Shown here piece by piece: positions 11,227 to 53,703 of a DNA stretch of 64,000 nt. Numbering within the stretch: the first letter of the stretch is position 1; each line of letters opens with the position of its first letter. Position numbers and translations under genes: made by a program. This DNA comes from Chiloscyllium plagiosum (taxonomy: Eukaryota): assembly GCF_004010195.1 (NCBI RefSeq), contig NC_057719.1, forward strand, positions 18,621,159 through 18,685,158, given 5' to 3'. Under the pieces are notes generated by a model that saw nothing but the letters and a program-made list of their open reading frames with translations, did not search any database and was not told the DNA's origin.

Positions 11227-11318
11227 CTGATGAAGGGCTTTTGCCCGAAGTGTTGATTTTACTGCTCCTCGGATGCTGCCTGAATTGCTGTGCTTTTCCA
11301 GCACCACACTAATCTAGA
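11227..11318 (+). mobile_element. Solo PLE pseudo-LTR fragment with mutated hammerhead
   Basis: ctgatga-a-gggc-tttt-gccc-gaag-tgtt followed by ctcctcggatgctgcctga...ccagcaccac, the same arm as in the fold-backs. Confidence 0.8.
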
Positions 11319-29365: not shown

Positions 29366-29950
29366 TTAAATCCCAATTTGAAATCTTTGATAATAAGCTT
29401 TTGGATATCTTATGAATTAAAGTATATTTTTGGGGATAGAAATATCGCTTGATTGTCAAGTGACATGTTTAGAATCAGTCTGGACACAGCAGTCTTCAAT
29501 ATTTCTCTAATCACACAGTTTAAAAACAAATTATGAATGTGTATTGCTTGCTGGAATGGTATTTGTTGCCCAGTGAAGAATCAACCACATTGTTACTGGT
29601 CTGAAGTCACATACAGATTAAATTGGGTAAGAACAGCAGCTTACCCTCCTAAAGGGCAGGAGTAAACTAGATAGGTTTTAAAACAATAATTGACAATGGC
29701 TACAATTAGCTAATCATTCAAACTTCCTCATGAACCATGGGCCTGTGGTTTGTAGTTGCTAGGCCGGTGACAGTACCTCTATGCAACTATTTATCACAGT
29801 GCCACTACCCATCACAATGTCATATGCAATCATAGACTTTCAGAGATATACAGCATGGAAACAGACCCTTCAGTCCAACTCATTCATGCCCACTCAATTT
29901 CCTGAACAAATCTTGTTCCATTTGCCAGCATTGGCCCATATCCCTCTTAA

Positions 29951-30168
29951 AGTGAAAGTGAGGACTGCAGATGCTTGAGATCTGAGTTGAAAAGTGTGGT
30001 GCTTGAAAAGTACAGCCGGTCGAGCAGCATCTGAGGAGCAGGAGAATCGATGTTTCAGGCATAAACCCTTCATCTGGAATGTGAAGGGCTAATGCCCGGA
30101 ATGTCAATTCTCTTATCTCCTCGGATGCTGCCTGACCTGTTGTGCTGTTCCAGTGCCACACTTTTTGA
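29951..30168 (-). mobile_element. PLE-derived fold-back mini-element (degenerate hammerhead)
   Basis: TSD cccatatccctct at 29935-29947 and 30169-30181; ~90-bp inverted arms; 36-nt unpaired tail at 29951-29986. Confidence 0.88.
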
Positions 30169-31415
30169 CCCATATCCCTCTAAATCCATCCTATTCATAT
30201 ACCCATCCAGATGCCTTTTAAATCTTATAATTCTACCAGCCTCCACCATTTCCTCTGGCAGCTCATTCCATACATGCACCACTCTCTGCATGAAATGTCA
30301 CCCCTTAGGTTACCTTTAAATCTTTCCCATCTCACCGTAATCCTATGCCCTCTAGTTCTGGACTCCCCCACCTCTGGGAAAAGACCCTGTTTATTTATCC
30401 TATCCATGCCCTTCATTATTTTATAAACCTCTATAAGGTTATCCCTCAGCCTCTAATGCTCCAGAGAAAATAGTTCTAATCTATTCAGCCTGTCCTTATA
30501 ATTCAAATCCTCCAAACCTGGCAACATCCCTGTAAATTTTTTCTGAACCCTTTCAAGTTTCACAACATCCTTCCTGTAGCAGAGAAACCAGAATTGCATG
30601 CAGTATTCCAAAAGTGGCCTAACCAATATCCTGTACGACTGCAACATGATCTCCTGTACTCAATACACTGACCAATAAAGGCAAGCATACAAACTCCTTC
30701 TTCACTATCCTGTCTACTGCGACTCCACTTTCAAGGAACTGTGAACCTGCATTCCAAGGTCTCTTTGTTCAGCAACACTCCCCAAGACCTTACTATTAAT
30801 TGGATAAGTCCTGCCCTGATTTGTCTTTCCAAAATGCAGCACCTTATATTTATCTAAATTAAACTCCAACTGCCACTCCTCGGTCAATTGGCCCATCTGT
30901 TCAAGATCCCGTTGTACGCTGAGGTAACGTTCTTTGCTGTCCACTATACCTCGAATTTTAGTGTCATCCACAAACTTACTAACCAGACCTCCTGCGTTCC
31001 CATTCAAATCGTTTACATAAATGATGAAAAGCAGTGGATCCAGCATCAACTCTTGTGGCACACCTTTGGTCCAGACTGACAAGTAACCGTGCACCACCAA
31101 CATCTTTCTTCTACTTTTGAGCCAGTTCTGTATTCCAAATAGCTCGTTCTCCCACTAGTCAGTGTGATCTAACCTTGCTAACTAGGCTACCATGAGGAAA
31201 CTTGTTGAATGCCTTACTGAATTCCACATGGATTATGTCCACCACTCTGCCCTCAACGATCCTCTTTGTTACTTCTTCAAAACACTCAATCAAGTTAATG
31301 AGAGATGATTTCTCCATGCAGAAAGCGTGACTTTCTCTAATCAGTCCATGCTTTTCCAAATATATGTATATCCTGTCCCTCAGGATTCCTTCCAAGAACT
31401 TGGTCACCATCAATG

Positions 31416-31617
31416 CTGGAAAAGCTCAGCTGTCAGGCAGCAACTGAGGAGCAGGAGAGTGCTGTTTCGAGCATGCGCTCTTCATCATTCCCAATGAAGA
31501 GCTTATAATCAAAACATTGACTCTCCTGTTCCTCGGATGCTGCCTAATATGATGTGCTTTTCCAGTGCCACATTTTTTTGACTCTGATCTCCAACATCTG
31601 CAATCCTCACTTTCTCC
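31416..31617 (+). mobile_element. PLE-derived fold-back mini-element (degenerate hammerhead)
   Basis: TSD tggtcaccatcaatg (31401-31415) / tggtcactgtcgatg (31618-31632); arms centred on cttcatca-ttcc-caatgaag. Confidence 0.85.
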
Positions 31618-32329
31618 TGGTCACTGTCGATGTCAGGCTCAGTGGTCTATAATTCCCTGGTTTTTCCTTACCACCTTTCTTAATTAGTAGCACCACGTTA
31701 GCCAACATCCAATCTTCTGGCACCTCACCTGTATCTATTGATGATAAATATATCTCAGCAAGGGGCCCAGTAATCACTTCCCTAGCTTGCTACAGAGTTC
31801 TACGATACACCTGATCAGATCCTGGGGATTTATCCATCTTTGTGCATTTTAAGACATCTGACATCTTCTCCACTGTAATGTGGACATTTTTCAGGATATC
31901 AGTATTTATGTCCCCACATTTTCTATCTTCCTTCTCCACAGTGAACACTGATGCAAGACACTTGTTTTCTTTTAATCTCCCCCATCTCCGCGGTTCCACA
32001 CATAGGTGGCTAATCTTTAAGAGGGTCTATTCTCTGCCTAGTTACTCTTTTGTCCTTAATGTAGTCATCTGTTTGACACCTTTGCCATTGATGCCATGGA
32101 TGGGTCGACAGTCTCAAAAGAAAGCAGAATTTCATTAGTGCAGTTACTTTAGTTTTTTGTTAACAAGTTTAATCCATGTATTAACATGTCAAGCCAAGGT
32201 GCCTATTTTCGTCTGGTGTTCTAATGGTGAATTTTCATCAAAGCATTGTTGCCTCCGGATTTGATTACTCTATGGGCCTCCTTACAGCCTTCACATTGTA
32301 CCTCTTCTATAAATAAGCTCATTTTAGTA

Positions 32330-32555: not shown

Positions 32556-32641
32556 TTAGATTCATACAGTCATAGAGATGTACAGCATGGAAACAGACCC
32601 TTCGGTCCAACCCGTCCATGCTGACCAGATATCCCAACCTA

Positions 32642-32857
32642 GTTCTGGATTAGTGATGCTGGAAGAGCACAGCAGTTCAGGCAGCATCCAAGGAGCAGCA
32701 AATCGACGTTTTGGACAAAAGCCCTTCATCCTGATGAAGGGCTTTTGCTCGAAACGTCGATTTCGCTGCTCCCTGGATGCTGCCTGAACTGCTGTGCTCT
32801 TCCAGCACCACAAATCAAGAATCTGGTTTCCAGCATCTGCAGTCATTGTTTTTACCT
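32642..32857 (+). mobile_element. PLE-derived fold-back mini-element with intact hammerhead
   Basis: Perfect 18-bp TSD accagatatcccaaccta at 32624-32641 and 32858-32875; arms ~32643-32730 and 32733-32821; 36-nt tail at 32822-32857. Confidence 0.93.
32729..32760 (+). ncRNA. Minimal type I hammerhead ribozyme (PLE-type), intact core
   Basis: uc-CUGAUGA(32731-37)-A-GGGC-uuuu-GCUC-GAAA(32751-54)-CGUC-ga. Confidence 0.75.
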
Positions 32858-34668
32858 ACCAGATATCCCAACCTAATCTCGTCGCATTTCCCAGCATTTG
32901 GCCCATATCCCTCTAAACCGTCCCTATTCATATGTACCTCCATATGCCTTTTAAATGTTGCAATTGTACCGGCCTCCACCACTTCGTCTGGCAGCTCATT
33001 CCAGACACGCACCACCATCTGCGTGAAAAGGTTGCCCCTTAGGTCCCTTTTATATTTTTCTCCTCTCACCCTAAACCTATGTCCTCTAGTTCTGGACTCC
33101 CCCACCCCAGGGAAAAGACTTTGTCTATATACACTATCCATATCCTTCATGATTTCTTTCTCCTCTATGAAATCACTCCTCAACCTTTTACTCTCCAGGG
33201 ACAATAGCCCCAGCCTATTCAGCCTCTCCCTATAACCCAAATCCTCCAACCCGGGCAACATCCTTGTAAATCTTTTCTAAACCCTTTCAAGTTTCACAAC
33301 ATCATTCCAATAGGAAGGAGGCCAGAATTGCATGCAATATTCTAAACGTGACCTAACCAATGACCTGTATAGCTGCAACATGACCTCCCAACTCCTGTAC
33401 CCAATACTCTGACCAATAAAGGAAAGCGTGCCAAACGCCTTCTTAACTATCCTATCTACCTGCGGCTCTACTTTCAGGGAGCAACGAACCTGCACTCCAA
33501 GGTCTCTTTGTTCAGCAACACTCCCTAGGACCTTATCATTAAGTGTATAAGTGTTGCTAAGATTTGATTTCCCAAAATGCAGCACCTCGCATTTATCTAA
33601 AGTATACTCCATCTGCCACTCCTCAGCTCATTGGCCCATCTGATCAAGATCTCATTGTAATCTGAGATAATTTTCTTCACTGTCCACCACACATCCAATT
33701 TTGGTGTCATCTACAAACTTACTAACTACACCTCCTATGTTCCTATCCAAATCATTTATATAAATGACGAAAAGTAGTGGACCCAGCACCAATTCTGTAG
33801 CACTCCACTGTTCACAGGCCTCCATTCTGAAAAGCAACCCTCCACCACCAAACTCTGTCTTCTACCTCTGAGCCAGTTTTGTTTCCAAATGTCCAATTCT
33901 CCCTGTATTCCATGAGTTCTAATCTTGCCAACCAGTTTCCCATGGGGAATCTTGTTGAACACCTTACTGAAGTCCATATAGATCACATCCACCACTCTGC
34001 CCTCATCAATCCTCTTTGTTACTTTTTCAAAAAAACTCAATCAAGTTTGTGAGACATGATTTCCCACACGCAAAGCCATGTTGACTATTCTTAATCAGTC
34101 CTTGCCTTTCCAAATATGTGTAAATCCTGTCCCTCAGGATTCCCTCCAACAACTTGCCCACCACCGACATCAGGCTCACTGGTCTATAGTTCCCTGGCTT
34201 GTCCTTACCACCCTTCTTAAATAATGGTATCATGTTAGCCAACCTCCAGTCTCCTGGCACCTCACCTGTGATTATCGCTGTTACAAATATCTCAGCAAGA
34301 GGCCCAGCAATCACTTCTCTAGCTTCCCACAGAGTTCTAGGGTACACCTGATCAGGTCCTGGGGATTTATCCACCTTTATGCATTTCAAGACATTCAGCA
34401 TTACGTCCTCTGTAATGTGGACATTTTGCAAGATGTCACCGTCTATTTCCCCACATTTTGTATCTTCCATGTCCTTCTCCACAGTAAACACTGATGTAAA
34501 ATACTTGATTAGTATCTCCCCCATCTCCTGCGGCTCCACAAAGGGCTGCCTTGCTGAACCTTGAGGGGGCCTATTCTCTCCCTAGTTACCCTTCTGTCCT
34601 TAATGTATTTGTAAAAACCCTTTGGATTCTCCTTAACTCTATTTGCTTCCTTTTTTATAACTTGCTGT

Positions 34669-39821: not shown

Positions 39822-40034
39822 ACGAAAATAGAGATTGCTGGAAAATCTCAGCAGGTCTGGCAGCATCTGTGGAGAGAAATCAGCGTTAACATTGCAGGTT
39901 GAGAGAGTCATTCGACTCAAAACATTAACTCTGACTTCTCTCTACAGGTGCTGCCAGATCTGTTGAGATTTTCCAGCCATTTCTGTTTTTGTCTTTGATT
40001 CACAGCATCTGCAGTTGGCCTTTTCTTTTTATTT
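39822..40034 (+). mobile_element. PLE-derived fold-back mini-element, family of 46253-50048
   Basis: TSD agtatagcttacag (39808-39821) / agtatcgcttacag (40035-40048); inverted arms centred near 39900; tail ..cagcatctgcag..ttttattt. Confidence 0.85.
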
Positions 40035-46075: not shown

Positions 46076-48090
46076 TTTTTGGGAGTAGAAATGGGGCTCA
46101 GTATTGCCTGCACTCTGGGTACTTCTGGCATTCCAAAATGACACTTCTGAAGTGATGCTATTACCAGACGCCATTTAATAAGAGGCTAGCATGCCCACAC
46201 TTACCATCAGTGGCAATGCATAGTTTGCGAAATCAGTCAACACAGAATTATGAAATAAATACGAAATTCCTGGCAAACCTCAGCAGGTCCGGCAGCATCT
46301 ATGGAGAGAAAGCTGAGTGAGCATTTCGATTCTGGTGACTCTTCATCACAACTGATAGCAAAGGTGGCATTTATGCTGAAGGTGAGGTGAAGGGGGGTGA
46401 GTATGGGCGGGGGGGAAAGAGGCGAGTGGATAGTTAGAGATGGAGCCCAGAGACAGAGAGAGAGATATCAAGAGGGTAGTCAGATGAGAGAATTATTGGT
46501 AGTAGGCCAGCAGAGAAGAGAAGCTGAATTAGTGATAATGACAACTGAGAGTAGGAGAGAATGGGAAGGCTATGCTGAAAGCAGTCATGTCATAACTGGA
46601 CGGGGTGTGGAGTGGGTAAAAAGCATGGAAGGATGGAATCAGGCTCTAAAGTTACTGAGATCAATGTTGAGTTCCAAGGGCTGCAGGGAACCCAGGCAAA
46701 AAATGAGAAGGCATTCTTCAAGCTTGCACTGAGGGTCACTAGAACAGAAATGTGGATGTGGGAACATGCTGGTGTTTTGAACCAGCAGGCAATTGGAAGT
46801 TTGGGGTCATTTTTATAGATAGAATTATAGGTGTTCTGTAAAGTGGTCACCCAGTCTGCATTTTGTCCCTCCAATGTAGAGGGGACCACACTGTGAACAG
46901 TGAATGCAGTCAACTAGATTGAATGAAGTACAGGTAAATCGCTGCTTCACCTGGAAGATATGTCTGGGGCATTGGACGGGGAGAAGGGAGAAAGTAAACA
47001 GGCAGAGTTACATCTTCTAGGGTTGCAGGGGAAGGTACCATGGGGTTATGGAGAGGTGTTCAGAATGGAGGTGGAGTGGATTAGGGTGTCTCAGAGGGAA
47101 TGGTTCCTGCAGAATGCCAACAAGGGACAGGAGGGGTATATGTGTTTGGTCATGGCATTCCTCTGGAAGTGACAAAAATGGAGGCTTACAGTCTTTTGGA
47201 TGTGGAGGCTGGTGTGCTGGTAAATGAGGATAGGGAGGATCCTATTATTATTGTGGGTGTGATGAGAAGGGGTGAGGGCAGAAGTGCGGGAGATGGGTCA
47301 GACGCGGCTAAGAGCCATGTCAAATATGATAGCGTGGAATCCTTCATTGAGGAAAATATGTGGACATTTCTGAGGCCTCTCTTTGGAAGTTGGCATCATC
47401 AGAACAGATATGATGGAGATGGAGTAACTAGGAGAATGGGATGAAGGAAGCACGGTGTGAGGAAGTATAGTCCAGGTAACTGTGGAATCGATTGGTTTGT
47501 AATGGATATTGGTGGTCAGCCTATCCCAAGAAATGGAAACAGAAATGTTGAGGAAGAGAAGGGAGGATTCAGAAATGGACCAAGTGGAGGTGAGAGCAGG
47601 GTGGAAATTGATAAACATTTCCAATTCTGGATGAGAGAAAGAAGCACTGATATTTCATTGATATACCAGTGAAAGAGTTGTGGGTAGGAGCCAGGGAATG
47701 TTCAACATATCCCACAATGACTGGGATCATAACTGGGGCCCATGTGGGTACCCATGGCCATTACTTTCACCTGTAAAAAGTGAGAGGAGTTAAAGGAGAT
47801 GTTATTCAGATGTTGAGCTCAGCCAGGTGGAGGAAGGCAGTGTTGGAAGAGGATAGTTCAGGAAGAAGCAGAGAGCCGAGACCATCCTGATGGGAAAAGG
47901 ACGTGTAAAGAGGCAGTGACTGGAACCCGAAAACTGAAAATTCTGAAACTGATGTAAAACCTCAGAGGAATAATGGATGTAATAATGGGAAGGGACTGGA
48001 CAAGGAGCAAAAAAGATAAAATGGATGTTGGAAGAAATAGTTTCCATGGAGCAGGAACAAGTAATAATAATGGTTCTGTCCAGGCAGTCA

Positions 48091-48385
48091 AATCATAGAA
48101 TCCCTACAGTGTGGAAACAGGCTCTTTGGCCCAACACCGACCCTCCAAAGAGTAATCCACCCAGACCCATTCCCCTACCCTATATTTACCCCCGATTAAT
48201 GCATCTATCCTACACCTCCCTGAACACTATGGGCAATTTAGCATGGTCAATTCACCACACCTGCACATATTTGAACTGTGGGTGGAAACCAGAGCACCCA
48301 GATGAAACCCATGCAGAGACAGGAACAATGTGCAAACTCCACACAGACAGTCACCTGGGGCTGGGATTGAACCCAGGTCCCTGCC
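48091..48385 (-). mobile_element. HE1-type SINE nested in PLE
   Basis: Minus strand gggttcaatcccagcc..gactgtctgtgtggagtttgcaca; CR1-like tail at 48091. Confidence 0.9.
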
Positions 48386-48828: not shown

Positions 48829-49855
48829 CAGATGCTGAAATCCAAAGTAGACAGGCAAGAGGCTGGAAGGACACAGCAAGCGAGGAAGCATCTGGAGGTG
48901 GAGAAGTCAAATTTTTGGGTGTAACCCCTCTTCAGGACTGGGGTGGGGGTGTGGGGGGAGTTGCAGATAAAGGGGGTGGCGGGGCAGTGTGGTGAAGTGG
49001 GGCCACATGAAGACAGGCAGAGGGTACGACCTGGTTGGTCAATGGGAGGAATGAAACCGGTTGGTGGCAGGGAACAGTTGAAGGGAGGGCGAGGGGCTGG
49101 GAAGGGAAGTTATTTGAAATTGGAGAACTCCATATTGAGTCCTCCCGGCTGTAGGCTGCCGAGGCAGACGATGAGGTATTATTCCTCCAGTTTGTGGTTT
49201 GGTTCATTGTGGCAATGGAGGAGGCCAAGGATGGTCATGTCAGAAAGGGAGTAGATCGGGGGAATTGAAATGGGCAGTGACTGGGAGGTGCGGTTGGCCC
49301 GTGCATGCCTGGCTGTGATGTTCAGTGAACCATTTCCTAAGTTTATGTTCGGTCTTCCTGATGGAGATAAGACCACATCGAGAGCACCTGATGCAGTCAA
49401 CTCCATTGGAAGAGAGGCAGAATCGAGAATGTGGTGCTGGAAAAGCACAGCAGGTCAGGCAGCCTCCAAGGAGCAGGAGAATCGACATTTCAGGCAAGAC
49501 TCCTTCATCATTCCTGATGAAGGGCTCTTGCCCAACACATGGATTCTCCTGCTCCTCGGATGCTGCCTGACCTGCTGTGCTTTTCCAGCACCACACTCTC
49601 GACTCTGATCTCCAGCATCTGCAGTCCCTCTTTCTCCAGGAAGAGAGGTGGGTGAACCTTTGTTTCACCTGGAAGGACTGTTTGGGGTTCTGGATGGAGG
49701 TGAGGGGGGTGGTGTACTGGCAGATGCGTTGGATGCGGAGACTGGTGAGGTGATAGGTGAGGACAAAGGGGGACTCTGTGTTTATTATATTGGGGATGGT
49801 TTAGAGCAGTGGAATGGGAAAAGGAGATGGTGCGGCAGAGGTCTATCTGGATGAC
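48829..49855 (-). mobile_element. Second PLE (5'-truncated: GIY-YIG endonuclease + pLTR) nested in the first
   Basis: Peptides VDCIRCSRCGLISIRKTEHKLRKWFTEH..LPVTAHFNSP and HKLEE..LGSLQPGGLNMEFSNF; pLTR with gtc-ctgaaga core near 48935. Confidence 0.85.
49418..49638 (+). mobile_element. PLE-derived fold-back mini-element nested in the GIY-YIG region
   Basis: TSD ggaagagagg at 49408-49417 and 49639-49648; arms centred on cttcatca-ttcc-tgatgaag; ~31-nt tail. Confidence 0.9.
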
Positions 49856-50305
49856 AGAGGGAGGAAGAGTAAAGCTTCTTCAAGGTGGGCATACCTAGAA
49901 AGAGATGTGGTAGTGAATTAAAAACGCAATTAAATCAAAGAACAGCAGATGCTGGGAATCTGTAACAAATCCGAAACAGAAATTGCTAGCAAATATCAGC
50001 AAATCTGGCAGAGTTAACATTTTGAGTCCAGTGACTTTTCATCAGAATAGTCAATGATATCTTGATACTAGTGCTGTTAGTTTTGGTGCTTTACGCTTAT
50101 AGTCAAAGCTGCCTCTTAACTTTGTGCAGCAGATCATGCACTAAGGAGGGTGAGGATTTCACAATTTAAAGGGGTCATTAACTACCCACTAATGAGTTGG
50201 TGATTGATTTTGTCTGGCTATTAAACCAATTCTGCACAATCTTGCTGCTTTCTACAGCTGTATAAAAATTGCTGCAATTGTCATGCTTATGCACTTTTTT
50301 CATTG

Positions 50306-50645
50306 GATCCCTACAGTGTCGAAGCAGGCCATTTGGCCCATTGAGTCACACTGACCCTTTGAAGAGCATCCCACCCAGACCCAGACCCCCTCCTTGTAAC
50401 CCTGCATTTCCCAAGGTGAATCCTAACCTGTAAATCCCTGGACAGTATGGGCAATTTAGCATGGTCAATCCACCTATCCTGCACATCTTTGGACTGATGG
50501 GGGAAGCCAGAGTGTCCAGAGAAAACCCATATAGATATGGGCAGAATGTGCAAACTCCACACAGATAGGCACCTGAGGGTGGAATGAAACCCAGGTCCTG
50601 AGTGCTGTGAGGCATCAGTGCTAGCCACTGAGCCATTGTTCCACC
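50306..50645 (-). mobile_element. HE1-type SINE, full length
   Basis: Minus head gggtggaacaatggctcagtggctagcactg, HE1 core, CR1-like tail. Confidence 0.9.
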
Positions 50646-50735
50646 CTAACTTCTTTATTTTTTAACCTTTTAACTGATTTAAAGGCTGGTGATGCACAGA
50701 ATGGTTCCTCCTAGACATGGATAGGCTAATACAGG

Positions 50736-51169
50736 TTCTGGATCAGTGGTGCTGGAAGAGCACAGCAATTCAGGCAGCATCCGACGAGCAGCAAAATCGA
50801 TGTTTCGGGCAAAAGCCCTTCATCAGGAATAAAGGCAGAGAGCCTGAAGCGTGGAGAGATAAGCTAGAGGAGGGTGGGGGTGGGGAGAAAGTAGCGTAGA
50901 GTACAATAGGTGAGTGGGGAGGAGATGAAGGTGATAGGTAGCTTCAGGGCAGAGGAAATGACCTGGGAGTTGCAGTGGGAGAGGGACTCCCTGAGATTCT
51001 TGTAGAGAGAGGAGGAAAACTTCTTCAAGGCAGGCATCCTCGCAAGAGGATTCACAGTAGGGTTAAAATCAACGAGGTAAAAACAATGACTGCAGATGCT
51101 GGAAACCAGATTCTGGATCAGTGGTGCTGGAAGAGCACAGCAATTCAGGCAGCATCTGACGAGCAGCAA
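50736..51169 (-). mobile_element. Internally deleted mini-PLE with 59-bp direct terminal repeats and hammerhead (retrozyme-like)
   Basis: Direct repeat 50736-50794 / 51111-51169 (1 mismatch, period 375); ORF start MPALKKFSSSLYKNLRESLSHCNSQVISSALKL from 51037, fused at ~50940 to a 3'-UTR-like tract. Confidence 0.88.
50797..50829 (-). ncRNA. Minimal hammerhead ribozyme, near intact (CGUC changed to CAUC)
   Basis: Minus strand uuc-CUGAUGA-A-GGGC-uuuu-GCCC-GAAA-CAUC-ga. Confidence 0.65.
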
Positions 51170-52055
51170 CAGTTTCAACATAACATTGAACATGCTTGAG
51201 CGAATGAGGGAAGGGTTCTGAGAGCAGGTCAAGTTCCCAACAGAGGGAAGAGAAGGAAATGGGGGCAAAGGGCTCTCAGCTTTTGACCATATCCACAGAT
51301 CATCGCTAGGGAGCAGATCCATGTAGAGCAGCTTGTGAAAGTGCTGTGACAATAGAAGCCTCTTGGCACAGCAGTAGTCTGAGACCCGACGGCAGCAGAG
51401 TGAGTTTTTGTGCCAGTGAGCTGAATTTGCAGGGCTTCACTCTGAACATTGCTCAGCACTCAGAGAATGGATGGATGCTGCAATAAAAGCTCAGAAAATG
51501 GCCATTCCACTGGGATCAGCTTGTTGGAGGTTGCATTTCACACCCATTTCATTTCATATGCAAAAGAAGAAGCTTCAGGCTCTGGAAAAGCTGTGTGCCA
51601 AGTTGGCTTCCTTCTTGCTCTTTGTTATTTAGGGCAGGCTTTTCACCTGGCTTCCCAGGCATGCCAAGCATCTGAGCATGTGCAGCACCCAGGAGCCTCC
51701 TTCTCAATGGGCCTTGCCCATTGAAGATACCATTTGAGACAACTACAGCTTTACAATTGTGAGTCTTCTCCCACACAATATAGATGGATGCCACTGCTAT
51801 TCTTTCCCCCTGAACTGGCTTCTATATTCCTGTGACCAGTATCTCAGCTGTGAAGATCCCACCCTATGTTCTCCTCTAAATTGTATTTAGTATCAAAATC
51901 TGAGCTGGTAGTGTTACTGTGAAAGCGACTGACAATATGTCTTTACCTTCACACCGCTCTTGCCCTTTATCCAGTGCCTGGATATCTTCAGCCTATGAAA
52001 ATGGATAGGGACACGAATAGAGAGTGGGAGGGCAGGCAAGGACTGAAGAGTGCAT

Positions 52056-52463
52056 AGTTTGTGAGAAGATTTGTAGCTCGGGTGCTCGTTGCTGTGGTTC
52101 TGTTCGCCGAGCTGGAAGTTTTTGTTGCAAACGTTTCGTCCCCTGTCTAGGTGACATCCTCAGTGCTTGGGAGCCTCCTGTGAAGCGCTTCTGTGGTGTT
52201 TCCTCCGGCATTTATAGTGGCCTGTCCCTGCCGTTTCCGGTTGTCAGTTTCAGCTGTCCGCTGTAGTGGCCTAATATACCGGCCACTACAGAGGACAGCT
52301 GAAACTGACAACCGGAAGCGGCAGGGACAGGCCACTATAAATGCCGGAGGAAACACCACAGAAGCGCTTCACAGGAGGCTCCCAAGCACTGAGGATGTCA
52401 CCTAGACAGGGGACGAAATGTTTACAACAAAAACTTCCAGCTCGGCGAACAGAACCACAGCAG
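52056..52463 (-). mobile_element. Young PLE-derived palindromic insertion (182-bp arms)
   Basis: TSD tgaagagtgcat at 52044-52055 and 52464-52475; arms 52090-52271 and 52281-52462; 9-nt loop; 34-nt tail at 52056-52089. Confidence 0.95.
52127..52166 (-). ncRNA. Minimal type I hammerhead ribozyme, intact (mutated mirror copy on + at 52386-52425)
   Basis: Minus strand GCA-CUGAGGA-U-GUCaCCU-agac-AGGgGAC-GAAA-CGUU-UGC; stem I GCA/UGC. Confidence 0.75.
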
Positions 52464-53387: not shown

Positions 53388-53703
53388 TAGGTGGCGTGGT
53401 GGCTCAGTAGTTAGCACTGCTGCTTCACAGTACCAGGGGCCAGGGTTTGATTCTAGCCTGGGTGACAGTCTGTGTGGAATTTGTACATCTGCCCTGTGCC
53501 TGTGTGAGTTTCCTCCCGCAATCTAAAGATGTGCAGGTTAGGTGAATTGGCCGTGTTAAATTGCCCATGGTGTTCAGGGATGGATAGGTTAGGTGCATTA
53601 GTCAGGGGTAAATGTAGAGTACTATGATCTGGGTGAGTTACTCTTTGGAGGGTCATTTTGGGCCAAATGGCCTGTTTCCACACTGTTGGGATTCCATGAT
53701 TCA
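53388..53703 (+). mobile_element. HE1-type SINE, full length
   Basis: ggtggcgtggtggctcagtagttagcactgctgc..gggtttgattc..aaagatgtgcaggttaggtgaattggcc, then tail. Confidence 0.9.

Follow-up and report, generated by a model that had tools for sequence, protein, structure and literature searches.

Within the 64,000-nt stretch of Chiloscyllium plagiosum DNA analysed here (the window), a minus-strand copy of a Penelope-like element (PLE) has lost its middle and starts a few nucleotides from the predicted cleavage point of a hammerhead ribozyme, which raises the question of whether it descends from a small, possibly circular, ribozyme-processed RNA that parasitizes PLE enzymes in the manner of a retrozyme, as a first-pass annotation had proposed, or is a more ordinary product of PLE activity. 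Our preferred reading, held at a probability of about 0.6, is that an autonomous relative supplied the enzyme and a linear partial-tandem RNA served as the template, giving a young, lineage-specific, and internally deleted PLE retrocopy. The element spans 434 bp (50735-51168) and comprises, in the order in which its minus strand is read, the following parts:

51169-51172, no strand: upstream target-site duplication, ACAG on the plus strand; 50731-50734 carries identical letters and a contig of organism B matches the flank starting at 51173
51111-51168, minus: 5' partial pLTR without the hammerhead core, from the repeat comparison; its start lies 5-6 nt past the cut position
51075-51110, minus: 36-nt 'tail' between the two 3' end points of the PLE family, from contig loose ends at 51110 and 51074-51076
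51038-51074, minus: 37-nt leader, from the sequence
50940-51037, minus: ORF start of 98 nt (32 codons + 2 nt) with its ATG at 51037, from protein identity
50939-50940, minus: deletion junction, from the window compared with runs X12 and X13, whose loose ends have their consensus at 50919
50831-50939, minus: C/T-rich 3' region ahead of the hammerhead (3' UTR by position); X12 records 3 and 5 extend the hammerhead to 50937
50795-50830, minus: minimal type I hammerhead motif with a weak helix I, its features as described in the relevant part of PMC4209133
50735-50794, minus: 3' pLTR segment stopping at the family's first 3' end point, from repeat and sibling comparison
50731-50734, no strand: downstream target-site duplication, ACAG on the plus strand, its letters equal to 51169-51172

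This structure exceeds chance. The direct repeats (50732-50794 and 51107-51169; 63 nt, 97% identical) are spaced 375 nt apart, as originally described, with a clean run of 59 nt that holds a single CpG-type mismatch (1/59, at 51157). The 4-bp duplication at both ends sets the bounds of the element at 50735 and 51168, so that the copy lacks the first 4-5 nt past the cut; its 5' end had been placed at 51169, about 4 nt past the cut, and while its nearness to the cut stands, the true end is 51168, position 51169 being a 1-nt match to the element besides its place in the upstream duplication. The adjoining GAAAC (51176-51172) was excluded from the element, as organism B carries it as host sequence, and the 5' junction is found unchanged in a further organism A sample (X5 record 24). 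The deletion junction, earlier put at about 50940, lies at 50940/50939, where the public contigs diverge, the intact 3' region continuing differently in them (loose-end consensus at 50919 in X12 and X13). The 36 nt taken at first for the leader are the tail, and a separate 37-nt leader does precede the ATG. The 375-nt unit folds no better than its shuffles (z −0.63), a neutral result.

At the protein level the identity of the element is indirect. Over residues 1-33 the predicted product shares 97% identity with the N-terminal end of P0001, a Chiloscyllium punctatum protein that then continues differently, bearing out the original reading of the first ~33 codons of an ORF; the ORF start is also 82% identical to P0004. 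P0001 had no useful Pfam match and no longer relative of it was found, protein searches recovered no full-length family member with reverse transcriptase (RT) and endonuclease, and neither a full-length nor a short relative was found for a 57-aa hybrid frame. P0002 and P0003 were set aside as repetitive proteins with weak matches, HEAT-like matches in the Atlas yielded no identification, and a 21-nt ORF pattern found at 139 metagenome, viral, and prokaryote loci was put down to chance, none of them matching the element beyond 29 nt. The 5' region of the element aligns to a neighbor whose 3' part is CxxC/endonuclease-like by eye, with no Pfam match; we take its C-terminal part to be a putative linker and endonuclease. 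Architecture, hammerhead, and homology to this decayed neighbor together point to a PLE, and the copy, being whole, small, and non-coding, agrees with the first-pass annotation in being a small non-autonomous derivative in need of PLE enzymes.

The hammerhead consists of a CUGAUGA core (50826-50820), a GGGC/GCCC helix II (50818-50807), and GAAA (50806-50803), with an extra base after A9 and a G10.1-C11.1 pair, and the motif places the predicted cut between 50799 and 50798, just where it had been put at the outset. The cut triplet at 50801-50799 was then given as GUC, and this copy reads AUC; the family letter G (50801 T>C on the plus strand) makes up 58% of contig depth in run X5, and because the change resembles CpG decay, the template may have carried GUC. 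The core is the only one in the whole element. As described in the part of PMC4209133 drawn on here, the hammerheads of PLE pLTRs are minimal, and their action as dimers needs a palindromic helix III; the palindrome, ACGU in a sibling at 32731, reads ACAU in the 434-bp copy and is lost. The motif is of the minimal type without helix III, in place of the canonical self-cleaving type I hammerhead of retrozymes. An Rfam search returned no match to it, and in the minimum-free-energy fold its core strands are paired.

At the other end, the stretch past the cut from 50798 to 50736 is 63 nt, as first stated, and the copy reaches 64 nt past the cut, to 50735; the special status claimed for this overhang does not hold, as it is the ordinary 3' end of the family. 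In the sibling at 32.6-32.86 kb, one arm ends at the element's 3' point and the other 36-37 nt further, matching the contig ends at 51110 and 51074-51076. Given that siblings share this 3' end point, the excess over one unit, earlier taken as a sign of a circle, is ordinary pLTR redundancy, and since a linear partial-tandem RNA yields a more-than-unit copy, a circle is unnecessary. A joint that 'goes back 372' was likewise discarded as an array, being ordinary pLTR-to-tail continuity. In the portion of PMC11167929 consulted, the tail of an Anolis PLE is flanked by two internal sites of RT initiation, and RNA lying further downstream is also required; the 3' end and tail of the element match such internal initiation.

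The insertion is young, as the flank in organism B shows 7 differences in 228 positions. The contig concerned (X12 record 8) matches 51173-51400 beginning with letter 132, after 131 further letters, at a depth of 25.8 that equals the far-flank depth; were it to jump from 51173 to 50734, its first letter would come to lie at 50604, inside the neighboring repeat by about one word length. We infer from this that organism B most likely has the empty site, the empty-site joint itself being absent among the 15 joints listed (255 further). Four family-minority letters (50744/51119, 50768, 50785, and 50792) are common to both repeats, which indicates that both came from one donor lineage.

A retrocopy of an already deleted PLE is supported by the 4-bp duplication, the probable empty site, the shared letters, the match of 3' end and tail to internal initiation, and the recurrent joints and similarly deleted older neighbor discussed below. 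We propose that the PLE protein would bind RNA downstream of the 3' pLTR and then nick the target; of the two internal start sites, RT would use the first, which lies 64 nt past the cut. The uncut 3' hammerhead would be copied, followed by the 3' region, after which the junction would be crossed, either because it was already in the donor or because a template jump created it at that moment. ORF start, leader, and tail would then be copied, synthesis ending within the upstream pLTR with 4-5 nt left before the cut, at what may be either a ribozyme-made RNA end or an ordinary truncation. Having one hammerhead whose dimer palindrome is now broken, and lacking a tail after its 3' end, the copy is probably a dead end.

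The chief alternative is that a full-length PLE inserted and its middle was lost later by DNA repair, such that the 375-nt unit was never RNA. Microhomology-mediated deletions often inactivate PLE copies, going by the relevant part of PMC3846280, and a shared 6-mer sits beside the junction, 4 nt upstream on the ORF side; the join itself, however, is without microhomology, and an insertion this young (flank 7/228, repeats 1/59) leaves little time for such a loss. A later deletion would also account for the lack of a near-identical second copy among the contig pieces listed, where near-identical siblings would collapse into one short contig, possibly outside those pieces. Against it stands the multi-copy depth of other joints of the same type, and we regard this account as unlikely.

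These joints bear on whether the junction recurs. One public contig (X5 record 19, among the 24 pieces listed with 151709 further) spans the junction from 50898 to 51003, showing 12 letter differences and 4 gaps, at a depth of 17.9 versus 9.79 for the flank; it is ~85% alike and 4 letters longer than the element, which is itself near the family consensus. For an intact ORF the 3' side by itself would call for 17-20 differences or more, against 16 in the whole record, so that its join is a real one, lying within a few letters of the element's junction. An independent join at a favored place may be at least as likely as common descent. On the same-junction copies that the first-pass annotation recommended looking for, the public contig pieces listed gave one such near-junction record and no near-identical copy. 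Six of the 15 listed joints (255 further) are other, differing ORF-to-3'-region joins. One of these, 50860>51002/51003 in X5 (organism A), occurs in two variant contigs at depths of 210 and 47 against a single-locus depth of 9.79; the resulting unit would be ~235 nt, and as a candidate amplified mini-PLE this join surpasses the 434-bp element. Another, 50903>50940, occurs in organisms B and C (X12 depth 26.8, X13 depth 265), with its ORF breakpoint within ~3 nt of the element's and 36 nt less of the 3' region. Set against single-locus contigs, the deepest joints apparently correspond, very roughly, to 10-20 copies, bearing in mind that contig depth is distinct from copy number, that a joint whose short side falls in a repeat is unreliable, and that a joint alone is not evidence of a whole element. 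Judging from these contigs, internal deletion is recurrent in the PLE family; the junction pattern had 0 matches in metagenome contigs. The retrocopy reading may be weakened by the unlisted empty-site joint, by the missing near-identical copy, by the possible independence of record 19, by the failure to recover a full-length family member, and by a 5' end so near the cut.

That 5' end is the main attraction of the reading as an amplifying retrozyme-like family, in which paired hammerheads would cut a tandem donor to a 375-nt monomer or circle that a PLE RT copies for more than one round. This 5' end falls 4-5 nt inside the predicted cut, and a uniform model, chosen post hoc, gives a 2-7% chance of such nearness depending on span and tolerance, with 2-4% for an end within 6 nt of the cut under uniform truncation. 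The unit further keeps the tail, leader, and ORF start, the region that the Anolis PLE needs downstream of the RT start (PMC11167929, in part); its length is near the 363-bp mean unit of one chondrichthyan (accessible part of preprint 10.64898/2026.07.22.740005); a circular template has been proposed for PLEs (PMC4209133, in the part seen); and record 19 and the multi-copy joints would be expected of a spreading family. Yet the best-supported family 5' ends in public contigs fall at 50829-50830, ~32 nt upstream of the cut (398 contigs in X5, 595+196 = 791 in X12, and 543+179 = 722 in X13), with none at the cut among the 18 loose ends listed (1534 further), so that the 5'-end mapping suggested at first goes against ribozyme-made ends as a rule. 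The window holds 15 pLTR matches, 13 of them outside the element, and 12 of these 13 start upstream of the cut, while the remaining one, weak and divergent, starts at −1 and none starts after the cut, these matches being mostly 3' stubs and hence no direct test of 5'-complete copies. Besides the element, the window has a single 5'-complete copy, the older neighbor that begins near 50047, and its hammerhead core is retained. Also adverse are the single hammerhead, the poor cutting of minimal hammerheads in vitro (PMC4209133, as excerpted), and the Anolis PLE, for which cleavage was unnecessary in vitro and no RNA-seq reads end at the cut, so far as the available part of PMC11167929 goes. No 375-bp array was seen at this locus (none in 10 TRF rows, and one core), leaving it short of the at least two consecutive units, each with a complete hammerhead, of a retrozyme. 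On a circle, moreover, nothing would make RT stop at the cut, and the two halves of the earlier proposal therefore conflict, and a cut 5' end favors linear RNA for the same reason. We therefore hold the retrozyme-like reading to be quite improbable; that the ribozyme made the 5' end of this particular template is possible, if doubtful.

In known systems, the closest parallels come from EN+ PLE insertions, which, in the parts of PMC11167929, PMC8557442, and PMC3846280 considered, resemble the element in the pLTR direct repeat, its 36-nt tail between two 3' end points (EN+ PLEs have an optional tail of 30-40 bp), a minimal hammerhead motif in the pLTR, a short target duplication, and the internal deletion of decayed copies. 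They differ in that the 434-bp copy is without almost all of the ORF and has its 5' end just after the cut and not before the hammerhead. Non-LTR animal retrozymes (PMC7229834 and preprint 10.64898/2026.07.22.740005, each in part) share with it a non-coding unit of ~350 nt (its 375-nt spacing falls within the 150-450 nt of retrozyme units), a type I hammerhead, derivation from PLEs, and a presumptive need for PLE enzymes. In retrozymes every one of the tandem units bears a complete hammerhead, whereas the 434-bp copy, known as DNA, amounts to 1.16 units, forms no array, retains a piece of the ORF, and has just one hammerhead, which is minimal and mutated. R2 SIDEs (PMC3414825, as far as covered) are alike in having ribozyme-bearing retroelement ends joined by an internal deletion and in moving in trans; they carry an HDV-like 5' ribozyme, are site-specific, and occur in many copies, in contrast to a hammerhead PLE seen at one locus. 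By analogy, with both ends kept and the middle deleted, the element could be described as R2-SIDE-like, built on a PLE. Chlamys PLEs such as MRC1 are also non-autonomous PLE derivatives that form pLTRs, differing in belonging to green algae and to a clade without canonical hammerheads, with similarity mainly at the 3' end (PMC8557442, relevant part).

Several components of this picture are already in print, including internally deleted PLE copies (PMC3846280), non-autonomous PLEs (PMC8557442), and PLE-derived retrozymes, animal retrozymes having been argued to derive from PLE pLTRs (preprint 10.64898/2026.07.22.740005), all according to the portions at hand; the supplements of that preprint may include the element's own PLE family. 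In the literature searched, partly in excerpt, an internally deleted PLE family with pLTR or hammerhead was touched on only by an R2-related review passage, and shark or non-autonomous PLEs yielded nothing closer. The single locus is by itself an ordinary by-product of an abundant retroelement. A broader and, to us, unlikely reading is that shark PLEs keep spawning internally deleted parasites of ~235-375 nt with several junctions, some reaching 10-20 copies and moving in trans. If this is true, such parasites would represent living forms midway between PLEs and animal retrozymes, their deletions would make up a natural series that maps the RNA signals for the PLE enzyme, and the copy would record an in vivo hammerhead-made RNA end, unseen, in the part of its report covered, in the one biochemically studied PLE. 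Were the junction families to spread in trans genome-wide, the PLE-to-retrozyme step, now argued mainly from phylogeny, would be shown, and if 5'-complete copies end at the cut, they would provide genomic evidence for in vivo hammerhead cutting of the PLE transposition template.

The surrounding sequence is rich in related remains. The older minus-strand neighbor (48830-50050) is itself an internally deleted PLE that keeps its 5' pLTR and a hammerhead at 50047, with an ATG and ~10 codons followed by the C-terminal/endonuclease-like part, the endonuclease region being reached within ~270 nt; an inverted pLTR pair (49418-49634) interrupts it. A decayed, 5'-truncated PLE with a hammerhead-like pLTR at its end lies at 46260-47800 on the minus strand and matches this neighbor in tblastx (E 2.7e-22). 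The 3' region of the element scored 68 and 66 against those of the two older neighbors (shuffle maxima 70 and 82), and the DNA at 49880-49640 scored 98.5 against the old element (shuffle maximum 106), all within the shuffled range. Solo or inverted pLTR stubs starting at or before the hammerhead occur at 11227, 14411, 29950-30160, 31410-31620, and 39836-40017. A near-perfect palindrome at 52090-52462 (182-nt arms, 98% complementary) carries a hammerhead motif of another family in each arm (52163 minus, 52389 plus), with Rfam miRNA matches below the gathering score, and three copies of a short interspersed repeat, ~80% alike, are found at 48093-48380, 50300-50635, and 53400-53701. The young inverted pLTR pair at 32641-32858 is of the element's family, with a 17-bp target duplication, an intact GUC, and one arm per family 3' end point; this stub sits in the 3' end of what are presumably pieces of a LINE-type reverse transcriptase ORF (32815-34581, minus).
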